DNA of 24,000 bases from Cyclonatronum proteinivorum (GCF_003353065.1 NZ_CP027806.1:754997-778996), one strand, 5' to 3'; counted from the first letter of the stretch, positions 1 through 12,069 are shown. Notes: generated by a model from the sequence alone, not told the origin. Made by a program: numbers and translations.

Positions 1-823
1 CAGCTAATCCCGACAGCAGGTTAGACAAAAAGTTAGCGAAAGAGCGATGACGGGAATGTTCAATTTGACACATGTTTTTGAGTTCATCATTTATGGTCTC
101 AATAACAGATCTCTTTCGCAACAGGATTTTGTCATTAAGACTCATCAGGCAATTTTTCATATTCTTGCGTATTTGGGTAATCAGATGAATGCCGTCATCA
201 AACAAAATCCTGGACAGTGCCGCTGAGATATAGCCTTTATCTGCATACATTTTTCCTGTAAAAGCTTTGATAAAGTTAGGATTTTTAAGGGGATCACGGT
301 CGTCCATATTTCCCGGACTAATCAGGAAGTTGAGCAATTCTCCCTTATCATTGACAGCCAGATGAAGTTTAAATCCGAAGAAAAATCCTATTGAAGATTT
401 ACCCAACTGGCCAATGCCCTTGAAGACTTTATGGTTGGATATACGCTTGTTTTTGCACACACGCAGCGGAGTGGAATCTATGAATGAGATACCGGTGCAC
501 TTTCCCATACAGCACTCTTTGACAAATAATGCCAGCGGCAAATTGGCACCAGCCATAAGCTCAACGAAGCGATTATATGAAACGGTCTTGGGGAAAAGAT
601 GACACATGTGTACCTTGACATATTGAGTATAGAAGCACTTGATGGTGCGATATCCACTGTGATGAAACAGAATCATAATTGTGATCACCTCGCTGGTAGA
701 CAGATTTGGCTTTCGCTTGGGGGTATTTCCAAGCATATGCTTGGCCATTGAGCGATGAAAGCCGATGCAGAAGTTGTCAACCAGGCAGTATATTTCGGTA
801 ATTTTATTGTCGGATAATGTCAT
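1..823 (-). CDS. IS982-family DDE transposase, partial (C-terminus runs off the left window edge)
   Basis: The reverse frame is open from ATG (823-821) to position 1. It is absent from the ORF track because it has no stop inside the window. My translation is MTLSDNKITEIYCLVDNFCIGFHRSMAKHMLGNTPKRKPNLSTSEVITIMILFHHSGYRTIKCFY...FIDSTPLRVCKNKRISNHKVFKG...FGFKLHLAVNDKGELLNFLISPGNMDDRDP...YADKGYIS. This fits the IS982 transposase pattern as I remember it. Confidence 0.8.
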   Translation of the reverse strand, partial: MTLSDNKITEIYCLVDNFCIGFHRSMAKHMLGNTPKRKPNLSTSEVITIMILFHHSGYRTIKCFYTQYVKVHMCHLFPKTVSYNRFVELMAGANLPLALFVKECCMGKCTGISFIDSTPLRVCKNKRISNHKVFKGIGQLGKSSIGFFFGFKLHLAVNDKGELLNFLISPGNMDDRDPLKNPNFIKAFTGKMYADKGYISAALSRILFDDGIHLITQIRKNMKNCLMSLNDKILLRKRSVIETINDELKNMCQIEHSRHRSFANFLSNLLSGLA

Positions 824-955
824 GACTTATTTTGCTATGTTGTTGTTATTGGTAGACTTAATATAGCAATTTGTTGTGACTTATCCGACATATAAATTGT
901 GCTTTTTCAACAATTTGTCGATCAACTTTAGCCTAATTATTAATCGAACTCAGGT
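1..955 (-). mobile_element. IS982-family insertion sequence, partial; right boundary approximate
   Basis: It contains the transposase above. About 130 bp of non-coding sequence lies upstream of the ATG and ends near ...cgaactcaggt (945-955), whose reverse complement ACCTGAGTTCG resembles an IS982-type terminal repeat. The other end is outside the window, so the inverted repeat cannot be confirmed. Confidence 0.5.
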
Positions 956-959
956 CAAT

Positions 960-2605
960 AGCTGTTAGAAATCTGGATCATTTAGCTTGCTGTAGCTCAC
1001 CAAAGTCGTTCATTACGATCAATTCAATCCCCGTAAGACCTCTTCGAGCACCGTTTTTGCTCTTGTTTTGGCGCTACAATGCATACCAATGCCTCAATGC
1101 CTGCATGGGCTTTGTTTCACTTGCTGTTTTGCCGTCTGTTTTCTATCCCAAGCTGTATGCTGTGCTACCCGCGAGGTAAAAGTTTGAGCGCCATGACAGG
1201 CGCCGCCCAGCCGTGACCCTCAAAAATGCGGATGATGGTTTTGCGTGCATGTTGAACCAGCCGTCCCGCCATATACATCAGGTTCTGGATGACGGTGCGC
1301 AGCCGAAGCCGTTTGCTCCTGGCTTTTCGCCCCGGCACCAGACCTGTTTTTAGCATGCCTTGCCCCGCCAGTCGCAATAAATTAAAGGCTATCATGCTCA
1401 TATCCAGCACGTGCTGGTTGACCCTGAATTTACCCGAGGGGAGTCGCTCTACATCCATATCTGTCTTGAGTTCACTGTGGTACTGCTCGCTGGTACCCCG
1501 CTGCTTGTAGAACTCATGTATCTGCTCCGGGGTCCAGTCCAGGCTCGTCCAATACGCATCGACGGTGATCATAGCCGGAAACATATACTGCCCGTCCGTG
1601 CGGGCAAACCGCTTGGTAACCCGGAACACAATCCGGCAAGTCTTCGGATCATCAGGGGTGTCACTATGTCCGGGAATCTGTACTTGCTTTTGTCCGTACC
1701 ATGCCCGTGCGCCTATATCTACGTACTCGCCATCGGCTCCGCCGTTTTGCTTCACAGCCAGATCCAGCCACTCCTGCGGATCCTGATTGCGTAGGTTGCA
1801 CTTCACAACAAAATCAGTATCCTTCTGGCGCATAAATAACCTGACATTGACGCCACTATCGTTGCCCGAGTCGGTCACCACAAGCCGCTTGTGGCTGGTC
1901 ATACGCTCAGCCATATCCATGGTCTGCTTGAACCACGCATCGGTGCCGGGTGTGTTGCTGTGCGCCGAGCCGTTGCGCAGCTCGTTGTTTATCATCAAAC
2001 CATACGGACCGATGTAGCCAAGCATGGGCGCATAGCCTTCAAACTGTTTGTATGTCCAGTCTACGCCTTCTTTGTGGCTGTTGGAGTTATCCATGGGTGA
2101 GACATCACAGTGAATCACCGCCCAGGTCTGCCCGTGCAGATCTTCGGTCAGCAGGTGCGGATGAGCTGCCAGCAGGCGGGTGTTGAACTCACGAAAGACA
2201 TTATTCAATGACTCCGGGCATTGCTCAAGACGCTGGCGCAGGGTTTCCGGTGAGGGGGTCTTTTTTATTCCCAAGGCAGTGGCAAATACGGGATCGGCAC
2301 GATATTCAGCTATAGCGTCAAACTGAGGTTTACCGACCGACAACAGCCCAATCATGGCCTTAATGGTATCAAGGGTGGAAATATAATTCTTGTTGCGGGG
2401 CAGCGAACAAAGGCCATTGATGTCATTGGCCAGCACGGGATCATCAAGGGCCTGACCAATAAAAGCCAGACCTGCATGAGAGGTAATTGGTGTAGAGGTA
2501 AGCTCAAATTGTATTTTTGACATGCTCAAACGATTATATGAGGGTTCACCAGTTGGGTGAAAATACGCAGAATCGCTAAAGCTAGTAATACAAACGTTTT
2601 AGGCT
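960..2605 (-). mobile_element. IS1380-family insertion sequence; both ends approximate
   Basis: The size (about 1.65 kb) is as expected for this family. The right limit is inferred from where the recombinase reading frame and homology resume (frame opens at 2603, native-looking sequence from about RIKVYYKEYKP). I could not identify the terminal inverted repeats or target duplication by eye. Confidence 0.4.
1165..2529 (-). CDS. IS1380-family DDE transposase (454 aa)
   Basis: Intact 454-aa ORF. The N-terminus reads ...TSTPITSHAGLAFIGQALD..., and the length and overall pattern are typical of IS1380-family transposases. Several + strand ORFs overlapping it are antisense shadows. Confidence 0.85.
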   Translation of the reverse strand: MSMSKIQFELTSTPITSHAGLAFIGQALDDPVLANDINGLCSLPRNKNYISTLDTIKAMIGLLSVGKPQFDAIAEYRADPVFATALGIKKTPSPETLRQRLEQCPESLNNVFREFNTRLLAAHPHLLTEDLHGQTWAVIHCDVSPMDNSNSHKEGVDWTYKQFEGYAPMLGYIGPYGLMINNELRNGSAHSNTPGTDAWFKQTMDMAERMTSHKRLVVTDSGNDSGVNVRLFMRQKDTDFVVKCNLRNQDPQEWLDLAVKQNGGADGEYVDIGARAWYGQKQVQIPGHSDTPDDPKTCRIVFRVTKRFARTDGQYMFPAMITVDAYWTSLDWTPEQIHEFYKQRGTSEQYHSELKTDMDVERLPSGKFRVNQHVLDMSMIAFNLLRLAGQGMLKTGLVPGRKARSKRLRLRTVIQNLMYMAGRLVQHARKTIIRIFEGHGWAAPVMALKLLPRG

Positions 2606-2941
2606 ATGAATGGGCCGGATTGCTCACGGATTAAGGTGTACTATAAAGAATATAAGCCATCAGAATATCTGTTCGAAGGTCAATTTGGTGGTCAGTACTC
2701 AACCCGAAGCATACAAACCCTTTTCAAAAAGGCACTTCAAGCATGTGGGATAAAGAAAAAAGCAACGGTGCATACCTTGAGGCATTCGTATGCGACACAC
2801 CTTCTTGAAAATGGTACGGACCTGCGTATCATTCAGGAATTACTTGGTCATAAGAGTAGTAAAACAACGGAACTTTATACCCATGTGAGCCAACAAACAA
2901 AGCAAAGAATACCTAACCCTCTTGATCAACTGGAACTTTAA
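2603..2941 (+). pseudogene. Tyrosine recombinase (Xer-like / integrase family), C-terminal catalytic fragment only; 5' part removed by the IS1380/IS982 insertions
   Basis: The sequence ...YKEYKPSEYLFEGQFGGQYSTRSIQTLFKKALQACGIKKKATVHTLRHSYATHLLENGTDLRIIQELLGHKSSKTTELYTHVS...NPLDQL carries the HxLRH, LLGH and catalytic Y signature. Only about 110 aa are present, whereas full-length recombinases are more than 300 aa. No IntI-specific insertion is visible between the YLF block and HTLRH. Confidence 0.85.
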
Positions 2942-2945
2942 ATAA

Positions 2946-3022
2946 TGCGCAATAAATGTTCGCATATCACCCTATATTGGCATGTAAAGCGCATGTTTAT
3001 TGCGTGTATAAACGAGTTAGGC
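2946..3022 (+). other. Hairpin plus GTTAGGC box immediately after the recombinase stop; candidate attI-like junction (alternatively just a terminator hairpin)
   Basis: Imperfect inverted repeat: cgcaataaatgttcgc (2948-2963) pairs with gcgcatgtttattgcg (2989-3006), with 9 perfect bp plus an extension. GTTAGGC follows at 3016-3022. The sequence from 3016 onward is complementary to the R''-like box at 3195-3209. Confidence 0.4.
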
Positions 3023-3028
3023 ACAATA

Positions 3029-3187
3029 TTAATCTGTACTTTTAACATACCTATTCGGCAAACCATTTTTTCTATCAGATTCACCTTCTTTGTACTTCTT
3101 GTATTCATCTGAACCCTTTTTCACAAACCTCGACATTGGTTTACCTTCATAACCTCTCAAATATTGTATTGCAACTCTCTGTAACAT
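3029..3187 (-). CDS. Small Lys-rich hypothetical ORF (52 aa) inside the 312-bp cassette; may be non-coding
   Basis: My own translation is MLQRVAIQYLRGYEGKPMSRFVKKGSDEYKKYKEGESDRKNGLPNRYVKSTD. It is below the ORF-track length cutoff, lies opposite to the cassette direction, and shows no recognisable motif. Confidence 0.2.
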   Translation of the reverse strand: MLQRVAIQYLRGYEGKPMSRFVKKGSDEYKKYKEGESDRKNGLPNRYVKSTD

Positions 3188-3194
3188 AATCTAA

Positions 3195-3342
3195 AATACT
3201 GTGCCTAACAAGTGTTTTGCGTCAGGCGGGGTTGACCGCTCCGAATGAACATTTGTGCTATGTTGAAGTTTCGTTTTCATATCATCGTTTGTGCTAAAAA
3301 TCCCGCCCGAACGCAAAGCACTCGGACGTTACCACACATACT
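3195..3342 (+). repeat. attC-like element A: 132-bp imperfect palindrome (core 3203-3334), GCCTAAC ... GTTACCA
   Basis: The left arm gtg-t-tttgcgt-ca-ggcggg (3212-3230) pairs with the right arm cccgcc-cga-acgcaaa-g-cac (3302-3321). That gives 3+7+6 bp with one mismatch and a bulge. An AAC box sits 2 nt before the left arm and a GTT box 6 nt after the right arm. The loop contains tttgtgcta twice. Confidence 0.7.
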
Positions 3343-3435
3343 AAAAAGCTGACCCGCAAACAGCACATTTGGTTTTTCCGACACACAAGCCAACGCTGAA
3401 AAAACCAAAAGAGCCATTTTTTTCCATCGCTCGAC

Positions 3436-3470
3436 TTTGACATTAAGAAAATTGTTTTAAATTTGTCAAA
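3436..3470 (+). promoter_or_regulatory. Bacteroidetes-type promoter (TTTG, about 18 nt, TAAATTTG) overlapping a 7-bp inverted repeat TTTGACA / TGTCAAA; possible operator for the downstream HTH protein
   Basis: TTTG is at 3436-3439 and TAAATTTG at 3458-3465, which fits the TAnnTTTG -7 consensus. The ATG is at 3473, so the mRNA would be nearly leaderless. The inverted repeat is tttgaca (3436-3442) and tgtcaaa (3464-3470). Confidence 0.45.
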
Positions 3471-3472
3471 AA

Positions 3473-3814
3473 ATGACAAGTCTTATGAAAACCACATTTG
3501 GGGAGTATATCCGACTTTTAAGGACTGAAAAAGGGTTGACTTTAACTCAACTTGCTGCCAAACTCAATTTGGATTCGGCAAATTTGAGTAAAATCGAAAA
3601 CAATAAAAGAGATTTTGATGAAAAACGACTTTCTAAACTTTCAAAAATATTTGGGATAAGCTTGAAAGAAGTTCGTGAAGAATTTTTGACAGACCAACTC
3701 GGGAAAAAGATTTACGAAACGAATTGCACCAAAGAACTCTTAAAAGTGGCCGAAGAAAAGGCTGAATATCGCAGAACAATTAATAAAAACCTTCAAACCG
3801 AAAAAGCAATATGA
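3473..3814 (+). CDS. XRE-family helix-turn-helix transcriptional regulator (candidate controller protein of the R-M unit)
   Basis: FGEYIRLLRTEKGLTLTQLAAKLNLDSANLSKIENNKR is a classic HTH_3 motif. The stop overlaps the methyltransferase start (ATGA at 3811-3814). Confidence 0.85.
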   Translation: MTSLMKTTFGEYIRLLRTEKGLTLTQLAAKLNLDSANLSKIENNKRDFDEKRLSKLSKIFGISLKEVREEFLTDQLGKKIYETNCTKELLKVAEEKAEYRRTINKNLQTEKAI

Positions 3815-4602
3815 ATATAGTATCATTTTTTGCAGGAGCAGGCGGCCTTGATTTAGGGTTCCAAAAAGCAGGTTTTGATGTCATTTGGGCAAACGAATAT
3901 GACAAAGAAATTTGGGAAACTTATGAAAAAAATCACCCGCACACATTTCTAGACAAGAGAAGTATTGTAGATATTCCAGCAGACGAAGTTCCTGAATGTG
4001 ATGGAATTATTGGTGGTCCACCCTGCCAAAGTTGGAGTGAAGCAGGTTCAATGCGTGGAATAAATGATAAACGTGGTCAATTATTCTATGATTTTATCAG
4101 AATATTAGAAGCTAAACAGCCTAAATTTTTCCTTGCAGAAAATGTAAGCGGAATGCTTTTGGACAGACACAGTGAAGCACTTAAAAACATAAAAGAATTA
4201 TTTAAAAATGCAGGAGTTGGCTATGAATTATCTTTTCAAATGCTTAACGCCTCAGATTTTGATGTACCTCAAGATAGAAAGCGAGTTTTTTTTGTTGGTA
4301 TCCGTAAAGACTTGAATTTTAATTTTCAGTTTCCAAACCCATTAGATAAAAAAATAACGCTTCAACAAGCAATTTTCGATTTAAAAGAAAGTGTTGTTCC
4401 AGCAAAAGAAGGAAATAAAACGAATAAGGAAAATTGCAAAATTGCTAATCACGAATATATGATTGGTGGGTTTTCGTCAATGTTTATGTCTAGAAATAGA
4501 GTTAGGTCTTGGGACGAACAATCATTTACAATTCAAGCAGGTGGAAGACACGCACCGATTCATCCGCAAGCACCTAAAATGAAATTTAATATAGCAGCAT
4601 AA
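3811..4602 (+). CDS. DNA (cytosine-5) methyltransferase, M.HaeIII-like, C-terminally truncated (motifs I-VIII and most of the target-recognition region present, motifs IX and X absent)
   Basis: Motif I is FFAGAGGLDLGF, motif IV is GGPPCQSWS, motif VI is LAENV, and motif VIII is QDRKRVFFVG. It is near-colinear with M.HaeIII as I remember it, up to ...SFTIQAGGRHAPIHPQAPKM, then ends KFNIAA-stop. No RE..R.QGFPD or GNAVP motif occurs in any frame nearby. Confidence 0.85.
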   Translation: MNIVSFFAGAGGLDLGFQKAGFDVIWANEYDKEIWETYEKNHPHTFLDKRSIVDIPADEVPECDGIIGGPPCQSWSEAGSMRGINDKRGQLFYDFIRILEAKQPKFFLAENVSGMLLDRHSEALKNIKELFKNAGVGYELSFQMLNASDFDVPQDRKRVFFVGIRKDLNFNFQFPNPLDKKITLQQAIFDLKESVVPAKEGNKTNKENCKIANHEYMIGGFSSMFMSRNRVRSWDEQSFTIQAGGRHAPIHPQAPKMKFNIAA

Positions 4603-4835
4603 TGGAAATGATAAAATTTGAAGGAAAAGAATATCCAACATTACTATTAAATTTCCCTTTTGGGGAAAGACAAATTAGTACCGAAAAATTGAATGATAAT
4701 TTGATGAATGTTGATGGGAGTTATGTTTCTGAAAACGCAAGATTAATTGACGAAAGTATATTTTATTTTGTGGATGAAGAAAATTTGAAACTTGATGAAG
4801 CTGAACTTACTCAACTAATTTTATCAGAAATATGA
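4602..4835 (+). CDS. Hypothetical small, highly acidic protein (77 aa)
   Basis: The start overlaps the methyltransferase stop (TAATG) and the stop overlaps the next start (ATGA). I counted 17 D/E against 6 K/R. No motif recognised. Confidence 0.6.
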   Translation: MEMIKFEGKEYPTLLLNFPFGERQISTEKLNDNLMNVDGSYVSENARLIDESIFYFVDEENLKLDEAELTQLILSEI

Positions 4836-5338
4836 TTCAATATCAGTTTTTCCCGCGTTCTCAAGGAATTACGCCTGAAATAAGAAAAGTAATTGATTGC
4901 TTTACACAAGTAAGTGATAAAATTGACTCTGATACAAAGAACCTAAAGAGTAATGAAGTTCTTCAACATTTATATCAACCACTTTCTGAAATTGGTTATG
5001 CGGTAGAAACAAGTAAAGCTAAAGATGATAAAATTGATGTGCCTGTACTTTTTGGATTAGATAATAGAATTGATAAAAGTTATAATGCTGATGCATTAAG
5101 CCAAGATGGAAAAATAGTTATTGAAGTTGAAGCAGGTAGAGCTACTGAAAACAATCAGTATATGAAAGATATTTTCCAGGCTTGTATGATGTTTGAAGTT
5201 GAATATTTAGTTGTAGCAGTAAGAAATACGTATCGTGGACATAAGGATTTTGAAATTGTATTTACCTTTTTAGAAACTCTATATATTTCAAGTCGATTGC
5301 ACTTGCCATTGAAAGGTATATTATTAGTAGGGTACTAA
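4832..5338 (+). CDS. Hypothetical protein, possible PD-(D/E)XK nuclease of BamHI/BglII-like type (168 aa)
   Basis: ...YNADALSQDGKIVIEVEAGRATENNQYMKDIFQACMMFEVEYLVVAV... shows a D-x(n)-E-x-E block followed by a hydrophobic strand, reminiscent of BamHI/BglII-type cores. The assignment rests on motif resemblance only. Confidence 0.55.
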   Translation: MIQYQFFPRSQGITPEIRKVIDCFTQVSDKIDSDTKNLKSNEVLQHLYQPLSEIGYAVETSKAKDDKIDVPVLFGLDNRIDKSYNADALSQDGKIVIEVEAGRATENNQYMKDIFQACMMFEVEYLVVAVRNTYRGHKDFEIVFTFLETLYISSRLHLPLKGILLVGY

Positions 5339-5393
5339 TGCGTGAGGGATAGAAGTGGAAAGCCCACAGCGAGGAACGAGCGAGGACTTGTAA

Positions 5394-6377
5394 CGGATAG
5401 CCCGACCCTTAGGGGCACGCCCAACTCAAACAATAAATGGGAAAGCGTTTGAATATGCTTTACTTTTTGAATTTTATGAACGTTTAAAGACAATAACAAG
5501 TGTTTCAATTGCTGAAAATGAACCATTTCAAAATGCAAAAGGCTGTTTTGATAGTTTTATTGAAGATGAACAAGACACTTTTAGAATTACGGCAAGTGCG
5601 GCTATAAATTTCTTAATTGATATTGAGCCAAGATTGTCAAATGGTATTAGTAAAGAAGATATTTTAGTTCTTGAAATCGTGAGTGACCAGGCAGGACAAA
5701 CAGGAGATGTTCGTGATGTACTTATAATTCGTTCTTTACAAAAATGGGAAATTGGAATTTCCGCCAAAAACAATCATAGAGCTGTAAAACATTCAAGATT
5801 ATCGTTAAACATTGACTTTGGAGAGAAATGGTTAGGAGTTCCTTGCTCACAAAATTATTTTGATGAAATCAAGCCGATTTTTGATATGTTGGGGAATCTT
5901 AAAGCTTCAGACAAATCAACAAAATGGACTTCGATTGAGAATATGCATCAAGTCGTTTACATTCCAATTTTAAACGCTTTTCGAAAAGAACTCTTACGGC
6001 TTGACAAAGAAAACCCCAATATTGTTGCCGAGAACCTTGTTCAATATTTAATAGGAAATGAAGATTTTTACAAGGTAATCAAAGGAAATAAAAAAGTAGA
6101 AATTCAAGCCTACAATTTAAGCGGAACTTTGAATTTACAATTTGAGAACGTAAAGCCTAAAGCTAGAATACCTAAATTGAAATTACCATCAAGACTAATC
6201 GAAATAGTTTACCAAGACAATTCGACAACGACTTTATTGGTTTCGTTAAATGAAGGTTGGCAAATCTCGTTTAGAATTCATAATGCAAGTTCAAGAGTAG
6301 AACCGTCATTGAAATTTGATATAAATCTTGTAAGTGCACCTCATACATTATTCACAAATCACATTTTTATAGCATAA
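5394..6377 (+). pseudogene. Putative cognate type II restriction endonuclease (HaeIII-like by context) lacking a usable start codon for the full-length frame
   Basis: The frame opens after TAA at 5391-5393 and reads ...TQTINGKAFEYALLFEFYERLKTITSVSIAENEPFQNAKGCFDSF... continuously into the track ORF 5634-6377. There is no in-frame ATG, GTG or TTG before the TTG at 5634. A possible catalytic block is GDVRDVLIIRSLQKWEIGISAK. The family assignment is inferred from the adjacent M.HaeIII-like gene. Confidence 0.55.
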
Positions 6378-6487
6378 TGCCAACGTAAAAAGCCATAAAC
6401 ATTGGCAAGTCGCACCAGCCGACACACAAGCCAAAACTTGCCAAAGAGTATGGCTTAGCCAACGCTGACAAACCTGAGCGAATAAGA

Positions 6488-6635
6488 AGTACGTGTGGTA
6501 ACAGCGTGTATGTGGCAATAGCGGGTGAAGTGGTAAATCGAAGGTCTGTGCATTTAAGAAAATTTGTGCTAAACGGAAAGGAAATTGCTTCTAATCCGCT
6601 ACTGCACATACACGCCAAACGTTAATCATAATCCA
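6488..6635 (+). repeat. attC-like element B: 132-bp imperfect palindrome (core 6496-6627), TGGTAAC ... GTTAATC
   Basis: The left arm gcgtgtatgtg-g-ca-a-tagcgg (6504-6524) pairs with the right arm ccgcta-c-tg-cacatacacgc (6597-6615), giving 11+2+6 bp. An AAC box sits 1 nt before the left arm and a GTT box 5 nt after the right arm. It has the same total length and the same asymmetric spacers as element A. The loop contains tttgtgctaaa. Confidence 0.7.
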
Positions 6636-7064
6636 AGACCCGCTCTATAGCAAGCGTTTCGTGCTGACCGGTTCAGGCTATTTGATGAACATCAACGTTG
6701 GTCGCCCCGCCGCACAATCGCCAAGCCGTTATAAGGCAGAAGAAAGTTCGTGCTGGGTTCGCGAATATTTAAGAGAAAGATTCTGTCAGTCCTTTAGTAC
6801 TTTACACAACACGCGTAAATCATTAATCGTATTAGTCAATACAACGTAGGTAGAGAAATTAAAACACCAAAAAGCGGTGATGTTAATGGAAACTGAATTC
6901 AACTGGTTGTATTTTTATTCTTTTCTGGTGTTCTGTGCTAATCGCATGGTTACTTGGCAGAAACGTACCCTCAGCACGAGATTATGAAGGGTGTAGTGAG
7001 TTATGGTCTGATGACTATTTCTGTGATTAGGATTGAATAAGCCAAGTGATGTTATGGAAAAAAA

Positions 7065-8540
7065 ATGAGCGATGAATTAGCAATTCCCGGAACACGGATA
7101 TTAAATGGTTTTTTCGGAACAGGCGAAGTTGCCGGCTTATCTGAAAACAAAGTATATATTCAATTTGACATTAAACGGAAGGCTACATTCACAGATCTAA
7201 GAATTGCTTTCAGAAAGGAGTTCGCATTTACAGATGTTGAACAAAAGCTGGCAGAAAGTCAATACACAGAGGTTCCGCTCGAAATCACAGACGATCGTAA
7301 CATCCATAAACTATGGGAATATATAGACGATAACTCAGGTATAAGCAATAATTCAACTGGTAATTCTGAAAGCTTCATCAAAAACGAATTGGATTGGATA
7401 TGCAACCTGCGAAGCACTAAGCCCATTTTACATCCGTGGCGTTATAGAAAATCAGACCAGTTGTTATGTGAACTCGTAAACAGAACCGTTTATTATTATA
7501 GTTCACACTATAAAATTGCGTTAAGAACTGAATATTCCTATGCAGATAAAAAGTTCAGGTTGAGACGTATAACTCCGGGTTTGGGCAAGGAATTGGAAGG
7601 GTTCTGTATTATGGGGACACCTTTGTACGGAATATCAAATAGCAGCAAGTCAGATGGTTTTTGGGTGATTAAGCATCATGGCGCCCCAATCACTGTTTTC
7701 GATCCCTTTTTTTCATATTCAAAATATATCTTAAAGCCCAACAAACCATTTCAATTTAAAATACTGGCCATAGCATTTGGCTGTTCCTATTCAGATTCCT
7801 CAAGTTTGATTGAGACGTACCTGGAAAAAGAGAACCACGAAATAAACACGTATTCTTTTTTGGGGAAGGTGAATGAGGTCAAAAACTATACGAGCAGTAA
7901 TATTGCAGAAAAACGATATTGCCATTCATTTTTAGAAATCAAAAACACAGGATTTGGGGCACAACATTTTATAGAAATAATGTTACCTGTCTTTTTTGAT
8001 AAAAGGTGTCCACGAGAAGGGGATTGGGTGAAAGGAAAATTATTCTTTGTTGGATTTCCTTCTCAAGCTGTTGATTGGTATGATGGTTGTGTAGTGTTAC
8101 CACGACAGTTCAATAAATTTCCCAAGTATAAACTTTGGAGAGGTTATTGCAAAAGCCTTGCACAGCAAGCTGTATCTATGTGTGATCATCTGGCAGAGCT
8201 TTGTTACCAAAACGACATAAAGGGATGTCGCATCAATATTTTGGAAAAGTATTATACCCCGGATCACTTCAATTATTCTCACAATGACAGGAACTTAAGT
8301 ATTATTCAATATTTATTTCGTTCGCTAATCAATAATTTAAAAAATGAACCATTAGAATTAGAACTTGCGGAGGTTGTGCTAAAGTTTGATTTCAAAAATC
8401 ACAATAGAGAAACTTCCTGTGTAGCTATTGCAACTGCTTTAATTAAAGATGTTAATGGGAAGGAAATTACATCAACCCACAAGCATGATTTGATATTGAA
8501 AGAACACCCTGAAACTAAAAATGTAAGAGACAAATTTTAA
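7065..8540 (+). CDS. Hypothetical protein (491 aa), orphan; the N-terminal 45 aa or so resemble a small SH3/Tudor-like beta domain
   Basis: Long intact AT-rich ORF followed by a strong terminator. The N-terminus GTRILNGFFGTGEVAGLSENKVYIQFD resembles the G..V.H..FG.G.V....V.F pattern of the UvrD/PcrA C-terminal domain. The rest is rich in aromatic residues and Cys, with no motif I recognise. Confidence 0.7.
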   Translation: MSDELAIPGTRILNGFFGTGEVAGLSENKVYIQFDIKRKATFTDLRIAFRKEFAFTDVEQKLAESQYTEVPLEITDDRNIHKLWEYIDDNSGISNNSTGNSESFIKNELDWICNLRSTKPILHPWRYRKSDQLLCELVNRTVYYYSSHYKIALRTEYSYADKKFRLRRITPGLGKELEGFCIMGTPLYGISNSSKSDGFWVIKHHGAPITVFDPFFSYSKYILKPNKPFQFKILAIAFGCSYSDSSSLIETYLEKENHEINTYSFLGKVNEVKNYTSSNIAEKRYCHSFLEIKNTGFGAQHFIEIMLPVFFDKRCPREGDWVKGKLFFVGFPSQAVDWYDGCVVLPRQFNKFPKYKLWRGYCKSLAQQAVSMCDHLAELCYQNDIKGCRINILEKYYTPDHFNYSHNDRNLSIIQYLFRSLINNLKNEPLELELAEVVLKFDFKNHNRETSCVAIATALIKDVNGKEITSTHKHDLILKEHPETKNVRDKF

Positions 8541-8649
8541 TTTCAATATATTTATGACTTGCCAAAAGAGTAAATAGCCATCATTGAAAACCTTTAATCA
8601 AAAAATAGGTCACTTGAAATATTATTATGTCATCTCAAAACTTACTCTT

Positions 8650-8680
8650 AAAAAGCGTCCCCCGGGGCGCTTTTTTTTTG
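8650..8680. terminator. Rho-independent terminator, potentially bidirectional
   Basis: In aaaaaGCGtCCCCcGGGGCGCttttttttt the GC stem is flanked by an A-run and a T-run. It lies between the convergent 491-aa gene and the reverse-strand remnants. Confidence 0.8.
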
Positions 8681-8717
8681 CCCAAAAATCCCCCAACCCG
8701 CATCAAAAAAAATCGGG

Positions 8718-8963
8718 TCAAGTACATTTCTTGGGGAGAACTCGATAATCAAGCAAAAAGTTTTTTGAGTTGGGTTCGCAAAAACCTTTAGATTCCCATT
8801 CATCGGGGGCATAACCAGGGGGAAGCTGATTCTTCTCCACCAGATAGGTGTGTAATGTTGAAGCGATAGCGCTACCCTCTATCCGGGCCTGCTCAAAACG
8901 CTCAATTTCAAACCGGTCCAGCAAACCAGCCGGTTAAAACAAGTGCATCAATTCTTTTTCCAT
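8718..8963 (-). pseudogene. Hypothetical small gene interrupted by an in-frame TAA
   Basis: The reverse frame reads ATG(8963) MEKELMHLF, then TAA(8936-8934), then PAGLLDRFEIERFEQARIEGSAIASTLHTYLVEKNQLPPGYAPDEWESKGF... The track ORF 8718-8924 is the downstream part. Function unknown. Confidence 0.3.
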
Positions 8964-9163
8964 ACCCACAAAATAACACGAAATCAGATCCGCTCCCCAA
9001 GTATTTAACTTGATCCATTTAAAGTAGGTTTAACGATCTGCGATAGCATCATTCAGCTACTCGTATTTTGAGTGGTCTTTAAACATTTTACCGATGCCTG
9101 CACACAGCTAACAGATAGCTTTGCGAACGAGCAGCTAACCAAGGCCTCAAAAGATCAGCGCAC

Positions 9164-11478: not shown

Positions 11479-11602
11479 AGGCTAAGTTTTCTGTACTGTT
11501 AGGTGATGAAACGCTCTGAGGCCGGAGGTGGAGGTCAGCTCGTGCATAATATAGATAAAGTAAGGCTGCGCAGCTTTATGGTTTTTGTTGAAGAGAAAAA
11601 TT

Positions 11603-11961
11603 GAGACTGCCTGTAAGCCGAATTCTGTGCCCTTATGGAATAAGGGTGGTAATCATTTATCTGGGATGCCGGTCACCCGGCACCTCAAGCGGCCTACCCG
11701 GCAGCATAGCAACCGGTGGTGCATACTGCCTGCTTGGCCTTGCACCCCGTGAGGTTTACCCTGCCGCTTTAGTCGCCTAAAGCGCGGTGGGCTCTTACCC
11801 CACCATTTCACCCTTACCCCGGCAAGCCGGGGCGGTATATTTTCTGTGGCACTGTCTGTATCCGCCATGAGGCGGACCCTTCCTGTTAGGAAGCACGGAA
11901 CCGGTAGGTGTTCGGACTTTCCTCCTTCTGAACAAGCAAAAGGCGATTACCCGGCAGCCTC
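11603..11961 (-). ncRNA. rnpB: RNase P RNA, bacterial type A
   Basis: The reverse strand reads GAGGCUGCC...GGAGGAAAGUCCGAAC...ACAGAAAAUAUACCGCC...GGUAAGGGUGAAAUGGUGGGGUAAGAGCCCACC...GGGUAAACC...AGAUAAAUGAUUACC...ACAGAAUUCGGCUUACAGGCAGUCUC. P1 pairing joins the 5' GAGGCUGCC and the 3' GGCAGUCUC. The track ORF 11653-11868 lies inside this RNA and is spurious. Confidence 0.95.
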
Positions 11962-12069
11962 AATAAACAGCAAAAAATAAAGAACGCTAATGTTTTCAGG
12001 ATGGCTTCAGCAAAGCGAGCAGTTGCGCAATAAATGTGCTGTAGCTCGTGAGCGTTTCAAGATAAGGAC

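Follow-up and report, generated by a model that had tools for sequence, protein, structure and literature searches.

What has taken the place of the junction between the methyltransferase (M) and endonuclease (R) genes in a HaeIII-type restriction-modification (R-M) operon of Cyclonatronum proteinivorum, and which part of the resulting locus is maintained? The operon lies in a 24,000-nt stretch of this genome (the window), and the proteins encoded at the locus are identical to the C. proteinivorum entries AXI99865 to AXI99870. In comparison with L001, an intact relative, the junction has given way to an 835-bp cassette that encodes a small acidic protein (orf77) and a conserved predicted nuclease (p168) and ends in a structured element of the Flavo-1 class. 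The explanation we favour, and hold to be probable, is that a HaeIII-type controller-M-R (C-M-R) operon was inactivated in one step by the cassette and now hosts a pair made of a nuclease and its partner or inhibitor. A homing-type parasite and a methylase-linked repair nuclease are the main rivals.

An initial annotation of this DNA had described a methyltransferase without motifs IX-X, an endonuclease frame without a start and, between them, two unrelated open reading frames (ORFs) and a GC-rich patch. All of the elements it named are present where it had placed them. The two ORFs and the patch, however, are not filler but form a conserved cassette. The features of the locus are as follows.

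3458..3465, + strand: putative operon promoter TAAATTTG, a Bacteroidetes-type -7 motif TAnnTTTG (sequence reading)
3473..3814, + strand: helix-turn-helix (HTH) protein, 113 aa, likely controller (C) of the R-M operon (Pfam HTH_3, E 4.5e-13)
3811..4602, + strand: M', truncated HaeIII-type C5 methyltransferase, 263 aa (Pfam, M.HaeIII structure 1dct, comparison with L001)
4589..5423, + strand: cassette, 835 bp (blastn and junction alignment against L001)
4602..4835, + strand: orf77, small acidic "family A" protein, 77 aa (homologue clusters)
4832..5338, + strand: p168, predicted PD-(D/E)XK nuclease, 168 aa (fold and conservation)
5340..5425, + strand: G+C-rich patch, a Flavo-1-class structured element (Rfam RF01705 match at 5333-5411)
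5424..6377, + strand: R', HaeIII-type endonuclease gene from codon 3 to the stop, without a start codon (profile and L001)

Replacement of the M/R junction

The 90%-identity cluster of the truncated methylase also contains full-length members of 349 aa. L001 is such an intact unit on a 254-kb contig, with an HTH protein of 109 aa, an M of 349 aa and an R of 319 aa. By blastn, window positions 3362-4588 correspond to L001 5550-6778 at 89% identity and 5424-6378 to L001 7060-8014 at 87%. The junction alignment, a mapping that the initial annotation had called for, places the left edge at 4588/4589, where identity ends after AAATTTA, and the right edge at 5423/5424, where it restarts at R codon 3. 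The replacement of the junction proposed there is therefore real: 281 bp of the intact C-M-R unit were exchanged for 835 bp. The lost segment comprises the 3'-terminal 90 codons of M, the spacer, and the R ATG with one further codon; homology of M runs up to 4588, and the final five codons and the stop of M' are supplied by the cassette. Since motifs IX-X and the R start went in one event, M and R were disabled simultaneously. A single recombination can thus switch off both members of an addictive R-M pair, a safe way to lose the system.

In gene order, overlaps and sequence the locus still resembles a HaeIII-type operon, the intact unit being 87-89% identical, and it differs by the missing M motifs IX-X, the missing R start and the foreign cassette at the junction. 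The start/stop overlaps noted earlier are all found, namely ATGA between HTH and M', TAATG between M' and orf77, and ATGA between orf77 and p168. The HTH gene is shared with L001, and the ratio of nonsynonymous to synonymous substitution rates (dN/dS) between the two copies is 0.058. TAnnTTTG is the consensus of the Bacteroidetes-type -7 promoter motif, and a match to it, TAAATTTG, lies 7 nt 5' of the HTH start; the corresponding position in L001 reads TATTTTTG. TAAATTTG is a putative operon promoter, from which the mRNA would be near-leaderless. A scan for sigma-70 promoters and terminators gave no usable signal.

Could errors of assembly or sequencing, or mere chance, have produced this arrangement of ORFs? 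An independent second assembly (P0003) contains the truncated M as well, both junctions are collinear between the window and L002-L017 and L029, and more than 20 independent contigs of JGI, ENA, NCBI and Logan assemblies from different environments share the junction architecture. Since the truncated M and the junction recur in independent assemblies and contigs, the locus is not an artefact, and we give that explanation practically no weight. An intron-like element whose removal would restore M was ruled out as well, as 8 to 90 M codons are missing at the junctions.

The methyltransferase and endonuclease remnants

M' matches the Pfam DNA_methylase profile over positions 1-255 of 324 (E 1e-73) and the M.HaeIII structure 1dct over residues 1-254 of 324 (E 9.5e-100). 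At HPQAPKM, about 70 aa short, the alignment stops, exactly where colinearity with M.HaeIII had been said to end. The remnant carries motifs I-VIII (FxGxG, the PCQ catalytic cysteine, ENV, QxRxR) and the target-recognition region with no notable gaps, and it ends five codons past HPQAPKMKF. Motifs IX (RE..R.Q.FPD) and X (GNAVP) are absent, as had been claimed, and neither these motifs nor any other C-terminal methylase piece (M_C) is found elsewhere in the 24-kb window. The closest full-length relative, P0004 (349 aa), has both motifs; M' is about 90 aa shorter than P0004 and about 70 aa shorter than M.HaeIII. GGCC is not avoided in the window (56 sites observed vs 64 expected). Judged from its sequence, M' cannot be an active methylase, and the R-M unit in the window is dead. 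The idea that orf77 supplies the missing subunit was ruled out, with neither RE..R.Q.FPD nor GNAVP in orf77.

On the other side of the cassette, R' covers the whole RE_HaeIII profile of Pfam (1-298 of 298, E 2.3e-104) and matches PADLOC REase_II with an E-value of 4.6e-109. The frame is open from 5394 to 6377 and forms a 317-codon open frame. R' lacks the ATG and codon 2 of the intact allele and has no expressible start at its N-terminus; consistent with the initial annotation, no ATG, GTG or TTG precedes the TTG at 5634, which is codon 70. Over codons 8-62, the dN/dS of R' is 0.06-0.14 in several loci with the junction of the window. Recent derivation from intact alleles is an adequate explanation of these values, because the inactive M' is equally low (0.03-0.07).

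The cassette in other genomes

A scan with one genome per species yielded 257 p168 relatives, of which the best 80 loci were examined. They span Bacteroidota, Gammaproteobacteria, Acidobacteria, Selenomonadaceae, Treponema and others. Co-oriented pieces of M and/or of a GGCC endonuclease adjoin the cassette in 42 of the 80, and no R-M remnant lies near the other 38. The GGCC endonuclease belongs either to the HaeIII family or to the non-homologous NgoPII family. There are at least five junction types, and the deleted segments of different types do not overlap. The arrangements are listed below, with numbers in brackets giving methylase or endonuclease residues and A and B standing for the two acidic partner families.

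(i) M[1 to ~135]-cassette-M[144 to end]-R; L071
(ii) M[1 to ~180]-cassette-M[~218 to end]-R, with a full R and its ATG; L050, L061, L073, L105
(iii) M[1 to 259-270]-cassette-R[3 onward], the arrangement of the window
(iv) HTH-M[1 to ~260]-B-p168-R.NgoPII; L034, L036
(v) R.NgoPII-B-p168-Flavo-1-M[5 to end]; L067, L074
(v), second form: R.NgoPII-p168-M_C; L070, L078, L079
(vi) R.HaeIII-like[1 to ~125]-A-p168-M[C-terminal part]; L084, L088

The order HTH-M'-orf77-p168-Flavo-1-R' also occurs in marine Flavobacteriales, activated sludge and other sources, in differing neighbourhoods. The Acinetobacter loci L023-L026 (~3665-4513) carry a 38-residue M remnant, a B ORF and p168 between hisH and hisA, so that the insertion site is inside the histidine operon. 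In the 288-aa protein P0294, a distant homologue of p168, the N-terminus of a different C5-methylase subfamily (motifs I-IV, PPCQPFS) runs in frame into p168, and because of it the association of the cassette reaches beyond HaeIII-like methylases. A literature search found no prior description of this cassette.

Selection on the cassette and decay of its flanks

How do the parts of the locus fare over time? Among type (iii) loci, M' stops at residue 19, 63, 71, 74, 120, 170, 178, 188, 213 or 259-266, and R' begins at residue 3, 4, 5, 7, 9, 43, 47, 55, 67, 151, 172, 203 or 222. In the L002 group, M' is frameshifted and R' is cut by an ISL3 element, the flanking alignments of which overlap by 8 bp (5605-5612), read as a target duplication. 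In L030 and L069, R' contains stop codons. Of the type (iii) loci, that of the window has decayed least. The alternative of a decayed R-M unit, offered in the initial annotation, agrees with this erosion of M and R remnants in sister loci with the same junction. Its other suggestion, a recombinant operon with a co-opted methyltransferase N-terminal module, holds only with regard to recombination: M' is frameshifted or cut to 19-213 residues in most related loci, which speaks against a protein function of the module, and the emphasis has to be reversed, with a conserved, horizontally spreading cassette as the selected part.

The dN/dS is 0.02-0.06 for p168 and 0.17-0.27 for orf77, and in 85 of 85 p168 copies the ORF is intact and D87, E98, E100 and K112 are invariant. 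Because of these low ratios and the intact copies, the cassette is the part under selection, while the flanks erode from both ends.

p168 as a predicted nuclease

In the 90% collection, homologues of p168 fall into 3267 clusters (E<=0.01), and at the 50% level the family has 998 representatives. No match to p168 came from Pfam, NCBIfam, PADLOC or PHROGs. A precomputed match to PF26497 exists for one homologue and was not reproduced with a local Pfam copy. Against PDB chains, neither the single sequence nor a profile gave a sequence-level match, and no Vsr family in Pfam or NCBIfam matched at permissive thresholds. Among 24 sequences 69-91% identical to the copy in the window, 69 columns are invariant.

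The AlphaFold (AF2) model of p168 has a predicted local distance difference test score (pLDDT) of 83.7. Its best Foldseek match is OkrAI (3odh), with a probability of 0.98 and a template modelling (TM) score of 0.56; BamHI gives TM 0.5-0.59. The four invariant residues D87, E98, E100 and K112 fall in or beside strands 80-86 and 95-100 and helix 108-120 of the model. BamHI uses an E-x-E arrangement. The likeness to BamHI and OkrAI comprises the best structural matches, a similar size and, putatively, the arrangement of the invariant D...E-x-E...K residues. The differences are that p168 has no detectable sequence similarity to them and no cognate methylase of its own, and that it is far more conserved across phyla than ordinary restriction enzymes. 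The fold together with the conservation leads us to read p168 as a BamHI/OkrAI-like PD-(D/E)XK nuclease that would be active on DNA in a Mg-dependent manner. The cassette exposes a very large, strongly conserved family of predicted nucleases with no match in the profile libraries searched, with an apparently obligatory small partner gene and with a statistical tie to GGCC-specific R-M operons.

Two more specific roles are disfavoured. A methyl-GGCC-dependent (Type IV-like) nuclease is at odds with loci of the L050 type, in which p168 coexists with a conserved N-terminal methylase piece (M_N), M_C and R. An additional GGCC restriction enzyme would not be expected to persist where the methylase is destroyed, as p168 does.

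The acidic partner and the left end of the cassette

orf77 is very acidic, with a net charge of about -11, and has 26 clusters of homologues. Its AF2 model (pLDDT 78) gave no fold match, and the profile libraries and PDB sequences gave none either. Family A relatives adjoin p168 in most loci. In others, a second acidic family (B), unrelated to A, takes its place. The overlap with p168 is mostly 4 nt for both families. An orf77-like ORF lies 3' of p168, in reversed order, in L053, L063, L075, L080 and L101 (Prevotella and relatives), where no R-M remnant was detected nearby.

In R-M contexts the left end usually keeps GCAGCATAA, then 0-3 nt, then the ATG of the small ORF. This motif precedes A-type and B-type partners alike and ends the upstream frame at the ATG (...NAA*, ...IAA*); in L097 and L098 the upstream remnant is instead fused in frame to the small partner ORF. 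The 5' end of M' is always kept, and the stop beside the ATG of the small ORF is usually kept. The retained 5' end may act as promoter and translation leader, and the cassette appears to have no promoter of its own. An IS200/IS605-like element was considered for the cassette and rejected, as no left-end hairpin is visible in the ~14 nt before the ATG of the small ORF.

A proposed hosted nuclease pair

How would the cassette work in a dead operon? We propose that one recombination swapped the M/R junction for an 835-bp cassette without an evident promoter, which would then be transcribed from the promoter of the R-M operon and translated by coupling through the M' remnant. Translational coupling would account for the persistence of the ATGA, TAATG and ATGA overlaps and for the retained 5' end of the interrupted gene. 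p168 would be an active Mg-dependent DNA nuclease and the acidic partner its inhibitor or regulator, the two forming a toxin-antitoxin-like or defence pair that is independent of the dead methylase. As in Type II toxin-antitoxin systems, there are two small genes with a 4-nt overlap and the acidic gene upstream, either partner family (A or B) can fill the role and the order is sometimes reversed, and the pair has spread widely by horizontal transfer and persists while its neighbours decay. Unlike such systems, the cassette matches no toxin, antitoxin or defence model, orf77 has no recognisable DNA-binding domain, no promoter of the cassette itself is evident, and the strong link to GGCC R-M would be unexpected.

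Several points weigh against this proposal. The Foldseek E-value of the p168 fold match is just 0.013, no solved structure matches p168 at the sequence level, and neither p168 nor orf77 belongs to a known family in Pfam, NCBIfam, PADLOC or PHROGs; orf77 also lacks a recognisable antitoxin or DNA-binding fold. In several lineages with the same junction, the 317-codon frame of R' is still open, at a low dN/dS, and could still be used. A plain toxin-antitoxin pair alone leaves the GGCC R-M location of about half of the copies unexplained. Finally, the insertions could have arisen by repeated events, or from one ancestor with a duplicated M followed by deletions; the latter would use a long target duplication or Campbell-type integration (for background, see PMC2853133).

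The Flavo-1 element at the 3' end

The G+C-rich patch forms the 3' end of the cassette and is the sole Flavo-1 copy in the window. It matches RF01705 over the full model length with 34.4 bits (E 9.4e-5) and falls short of the gathering score of 42, owing to a different central hairpin; nine cassette-linked sister copies, at 56-64 bits, exceed the Rfam threshold. Among 17 cassette-linked copies, that of the window included, 5 of 18 pairs show compensatory changes. The pairs with such changes include a closing helix GCGTG/CACGC and a central hairpin that differs entirely in sequence between lineages. The GGGATAG and CGGATAGCCCGACCC boxes are conserved.

Flavo-1 is a computationally defined motif of unknown function that is abundant in Flavobacteriaceae (Weinberg et al. 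2010, PMC2864571; PMC9723704), and its matches lie in either orientation relative to transcripts (PMC9723704). The element here is like it in the full-length model match, the sister copies above the curated threshold and the covarying pairs. It differs in being the 3' terminus of a mobile gene cassette and in a genome outside Flavobacteriia; a literature search found no description of Flavo-1 in such a context. A second Flavo-1 in L105 (1621-1708, - strand, 46.6 bits) is unconnected to the cassette there. Because of this unlinked copy, the element is consistent with a dispersed repeat in Bacteroidota genomes. The cassette places this orphan motif at a defined end of a mobile unit, which offers a testable handle on its function.

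The position of the element brings integron attC sites to mind. The cassette ORFs have no evident promoter and start a few bases from the left boundary, and the 3' end is an imperfect palindrome of ~85 nt with conserved ends and a variable, covarying centre. In contrast to attC, the element has no RYYYAAC/GTTRRRY core pair: just its 3' end is core-like (GCCCAAC), and its 5' end reads GCGTGAGGG. Nor is there a cassette array or an integron integrase, and the insertions come with deletions. The sole recombinase in the vicinity, at 2606-2941, is of the small tyrosine type and truncated.

ORFs directly after Flavo-1 are often start-less, yet open and with low dN/dS. In L067 (1525-2580) and L074 (2716-3768), a near full-length HaeIII-like M ORF begins after the stop that follows Flavo-1. 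No ATG occurs in it before codon 77 or 78, and the 75 codons ahead of that ATG, motif I among them, have a dN/dS of 0.09 between the two loci. It is possible that start-less ORFs of this kind are translated without a canonical start. Translated read-through of the GC patch ("RIARPxGxRPN") was ruled out, as the patch and the downstream ORF do not keep a constant frame to each other.

Split methylases and the association with GGCC systems

In arrangement (ii), the cassette lies between two methylase pieces that are both conserved. M_C starts at the Met of FMSRNRV and holds the core of the recognition region with motifs IX and X. Across L050, L061, L073 and L105 all components diverge together, with synonymous distances from 0.5 to more than 2; the dN/dS is 0.005-0.05 for M_N, 0.09-0.21 for M_C and 0.04-0.07 for R, and 12 of 12 components are intact. 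M.AquI and M.EcoHK31I are natural C5 methylases made of two polypeptides, GGCC methylases in detached fragments show complementation, and at splits in the proximal variable region small losses are tolerated (PMC3404938). Because the components are intact and of low dN/dS, and given these precedents of two-polypeptide enzymes and fragment complementation, arrangement (ii) probably represents an R-M system that functions with a methylase gene interrupted by the cassette. Such natural splits mirror the laboratory fragment-complementation experiments.

Could M' likewise be completed by a separate motif IX-X polypeptide, as in M.AquI or M.EcoHK31I? The precedents just cited favour it, and so do the related loci that encode M_N (motifs I-VIII) and M_C as separate conserved ORFs around the cassette. 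The initial annotation had named a C-terminal subunit encoded elsewhere as a finding that would overturn its view; such a subunit exists in L050, L061, L073 and L105, but there is no M_C in the window, and none within 5 kb in the other loci that share its junction. The analogy therefore does not rescue M'. In addition, most of those loci have a frameshifted or deleted M', orf77 and p168 have no motif IX or X, and splits of M.SssI in the distal variable region failed to complement (PMC3404938), whereas the break here is at the very end of that region. We consider a two-subunit methylase in the window very unlikely.

A compact three-gene unit of R.NgoPII, p168 and M_C is found in L078 (4222-5896), L079 and L070 (264-2015). 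Its M_C, of 122-127 aa, has the recognition core, motifs IX and X and its own ATG; no N-terminal methylase part lies within 5 kb. The unit occurs in three genome contexts, among them the mlaF/mlaD gap in L078 and Glaesserella in L070. Across the three, M_C is 75-81% identical and R 53%.

Does p168 then serve the R-M system? Vsr repair genes adjoin C5 methylases, and T:G mismatches arise when 5-methylcytosine is deaminated. By analogy, p168 would be a Vsr-like T:G repair nuclease, a working accessory of GGCC R-M; R' would still be made, by non-canonical initiation or by re-initiation after Flavo-1, and methylation would come from another methylase. The coexistence of the cassette with conserved M_N, M_C and R over saturated synonymous divergence, the recurrence of the compact R.NgoPII-p168-M_C unit, the open start-less ORFs of low dN/dS after Flavo-1 (R' here, M in L067 and L074) and the Vsr precedent itself all fit this view. 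Nevertheless, p168 has no similarity to the Vsr family, and it is equally selected where M is destroyed or absent, as in the clade of the window, in Acinetobacter with its 38-residue M remnant and in the 38 stand-alone loci. Most loci with this junction have a decaying M' and many a shortened or interrupted R', and in the window codon 70 is the earliest in-frame start. Low ratios in the flanking genes say little about function, because M' is low too though it cannot be active, and a repair nuclease would need no acidic partner. These facts make the repair-accessory explanation unlikely.

A broader possibility, which we put forward tentatively and regard as rather doubtful, is that the cassette is an undescribed mobile element specialised on GGCC R-M operons that can leave the methylase working as two polypeptides, with its Flavo-1 end as a functional DNA or RNA site. 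That end could be an attC-like recombination site, or a translation signal for the start-less ORF downstream (R', M in L067 and L074, M_C). If true, this would be the first biological role for the orphan Flavo-1 motif, and a nuclease family would have a newly defined tie to R-M systems, as their partner or parasite.

Exchange of the cassette between R-M alleles

Is the cassette as old as its flanks? In sliding windows, the cassette of the window is 95-97% identical to that of L002 over its 3' half, whereas M' is ~90% identical to L001 and ~83% to L002; identity to L002 rises up to 94% in the 100-bp bin at the junction (4536-4635). Synonymous distances are saturated for most pairs of loci, and cassette and flanks were therefore dated against each other by the proportion of nonsynonymous differences (pN). 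R' of the window has a pN of 0.038 to the intact R of L001 and of 0.056 to L010, the closest cassette-bearing R'. Between the window and L094, pN is 0.196 for p168 and 0.081 for R'; the co-diverging pair L061/L073 shows the reverse, with 0.025 for p168 and 0.087 for R. In the p168 tree, arrangements (i) and (ii) form one clade, and type (iii) appears in three separate places. The mosaic identity, the pN contrasts and the tree together show that homologous recombination has moved the cassette or its flanks between diverged R-M alleles. In the clade of (i) and (ii), left M pieces extend up to residue 213 and right pieces begin as early as 144, a pattern that for this clade favours one ancestor with M on both sides, followed by deletions.

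A rival explanation is a homing-type parasite specific to GGCC R-M operons, in which p168 would cut cassette-free GGCC R-M alleles and repair from the cassette copy would spread the cassette. The presence/absence polymorphism between otherwise homologous alleles (L001 and the window), the short stretch of higher identity beside the junction, the intact allele that nests among cassette-bearing R' alleles, the deeply diverged cassette lineages at the same junction, the nuclease fold, and the strong tie to one kind of target gene, with another C5-methylase subfamily added by P0294, are all in accord with homing. The mosaics, however, need ordinary homologous recombination only, and no single target emerges: the cassette lies at M residues ~135, ~180 and ~260, at the M start and inside R, with deleted segments that do not overlap. 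Furthermore, p168 is far more conserved than usual homing enzymes, 38 of the 80 copies have no R-M remnant nearby, and 50,697 phage records hold no copy of the cassette; 72,556 plasmids hold one. We judge homing to be improbable as the explanation of this locus, and retain the hosted nuclease pair as the preferred one.

Free-standing homing cassettes split host genes into working pieces, as with phage mobE in nrdA and with T4 mobA in gene 60, where an RNA hairpin is present. The present cassette resembles them as a compact, co-oriented nuclease cassette in a conserved gene, with presence/absence polymorphism, mosaic flanks, a host gene conserved as two pieces in one arrangement, and a structured element. 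It differs in its location in a bacterial chromosome with no phage copies, in its several positions with adjacent deletions, in its second, acidic gene, and in a predicted BamHI-like fold that is not of the usual homing families.

Flanking repeats and neighbouring features

The R-M unit as a whole is bracketed by a 16-bp exact direct repeat.

3378..3393, + strand: left copy of the 16-bp direct repeat CCGACACACAAGCCAA (two copies in the window)
6419..6434, + strand: right copy of CCGACACACAAGCCAA, inside a long imperfect hairpin

The window contains exactly two copies, against 0.21 expected by chance, each in a hairpin loop region. The left copy is in the loop of a hairpin with arms at 3358-3377 and 3400-3419, 80 bp upstream of the operon, and the right copy is 42 bp past the R' stop. 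None of the 109 related loci fetched contains the repeat, which may be a target duplication or an attachment site for the unit. The adjacent GCCAACGCTGA is likewise repeated, at ~3390 and 6459. A perfect inverted repeat of 15 bp, GTTTAGCTACGCAAC (5483-5497) and GTTGCGTAGCTAAAC (8096-8110), encloses the intact unit of L001 and is unrelated to the repeat around the unit of the window.

The unit is part of a low-G+C island at ~2600-9000 (0.36 vs 0.49 in the rest of the window), together with the recombinase fragment and a 491-aa ORF (7065-8540) that has no match in Pfam, NCBIfam, PADLOC or PHROGs and three members in its 90% cluster. The recombinase fragment (2606-2941, + strand) is the last 111 codons of a gene whose full-length relatives encode 274 aa, and no ORF for the N-terminal part occurs in window positions 1-1200. 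It adjoins a 454-aa DDE transposase (DDE_Tnp_1_4; 1165-2529, - strand). Upstream of the operon, non-coding DNA of the window (3191-3316, - strand) and of L050 (4010-4162, + strand) gives similar spurious translations, RSGGIFSTN...PPDAKHLLG and RSGGLFSTN...QPDAKLRLG, in orientations relative to the operon that are opposite in the two loci, which suggests a non-coding element conserved upstream of R-M units. A terminator-like hairpin is located at 3304-3328 (- strand), and a bacterial RNase P RNA of class A at 11598-11962 (- strand, 287.6 bits).

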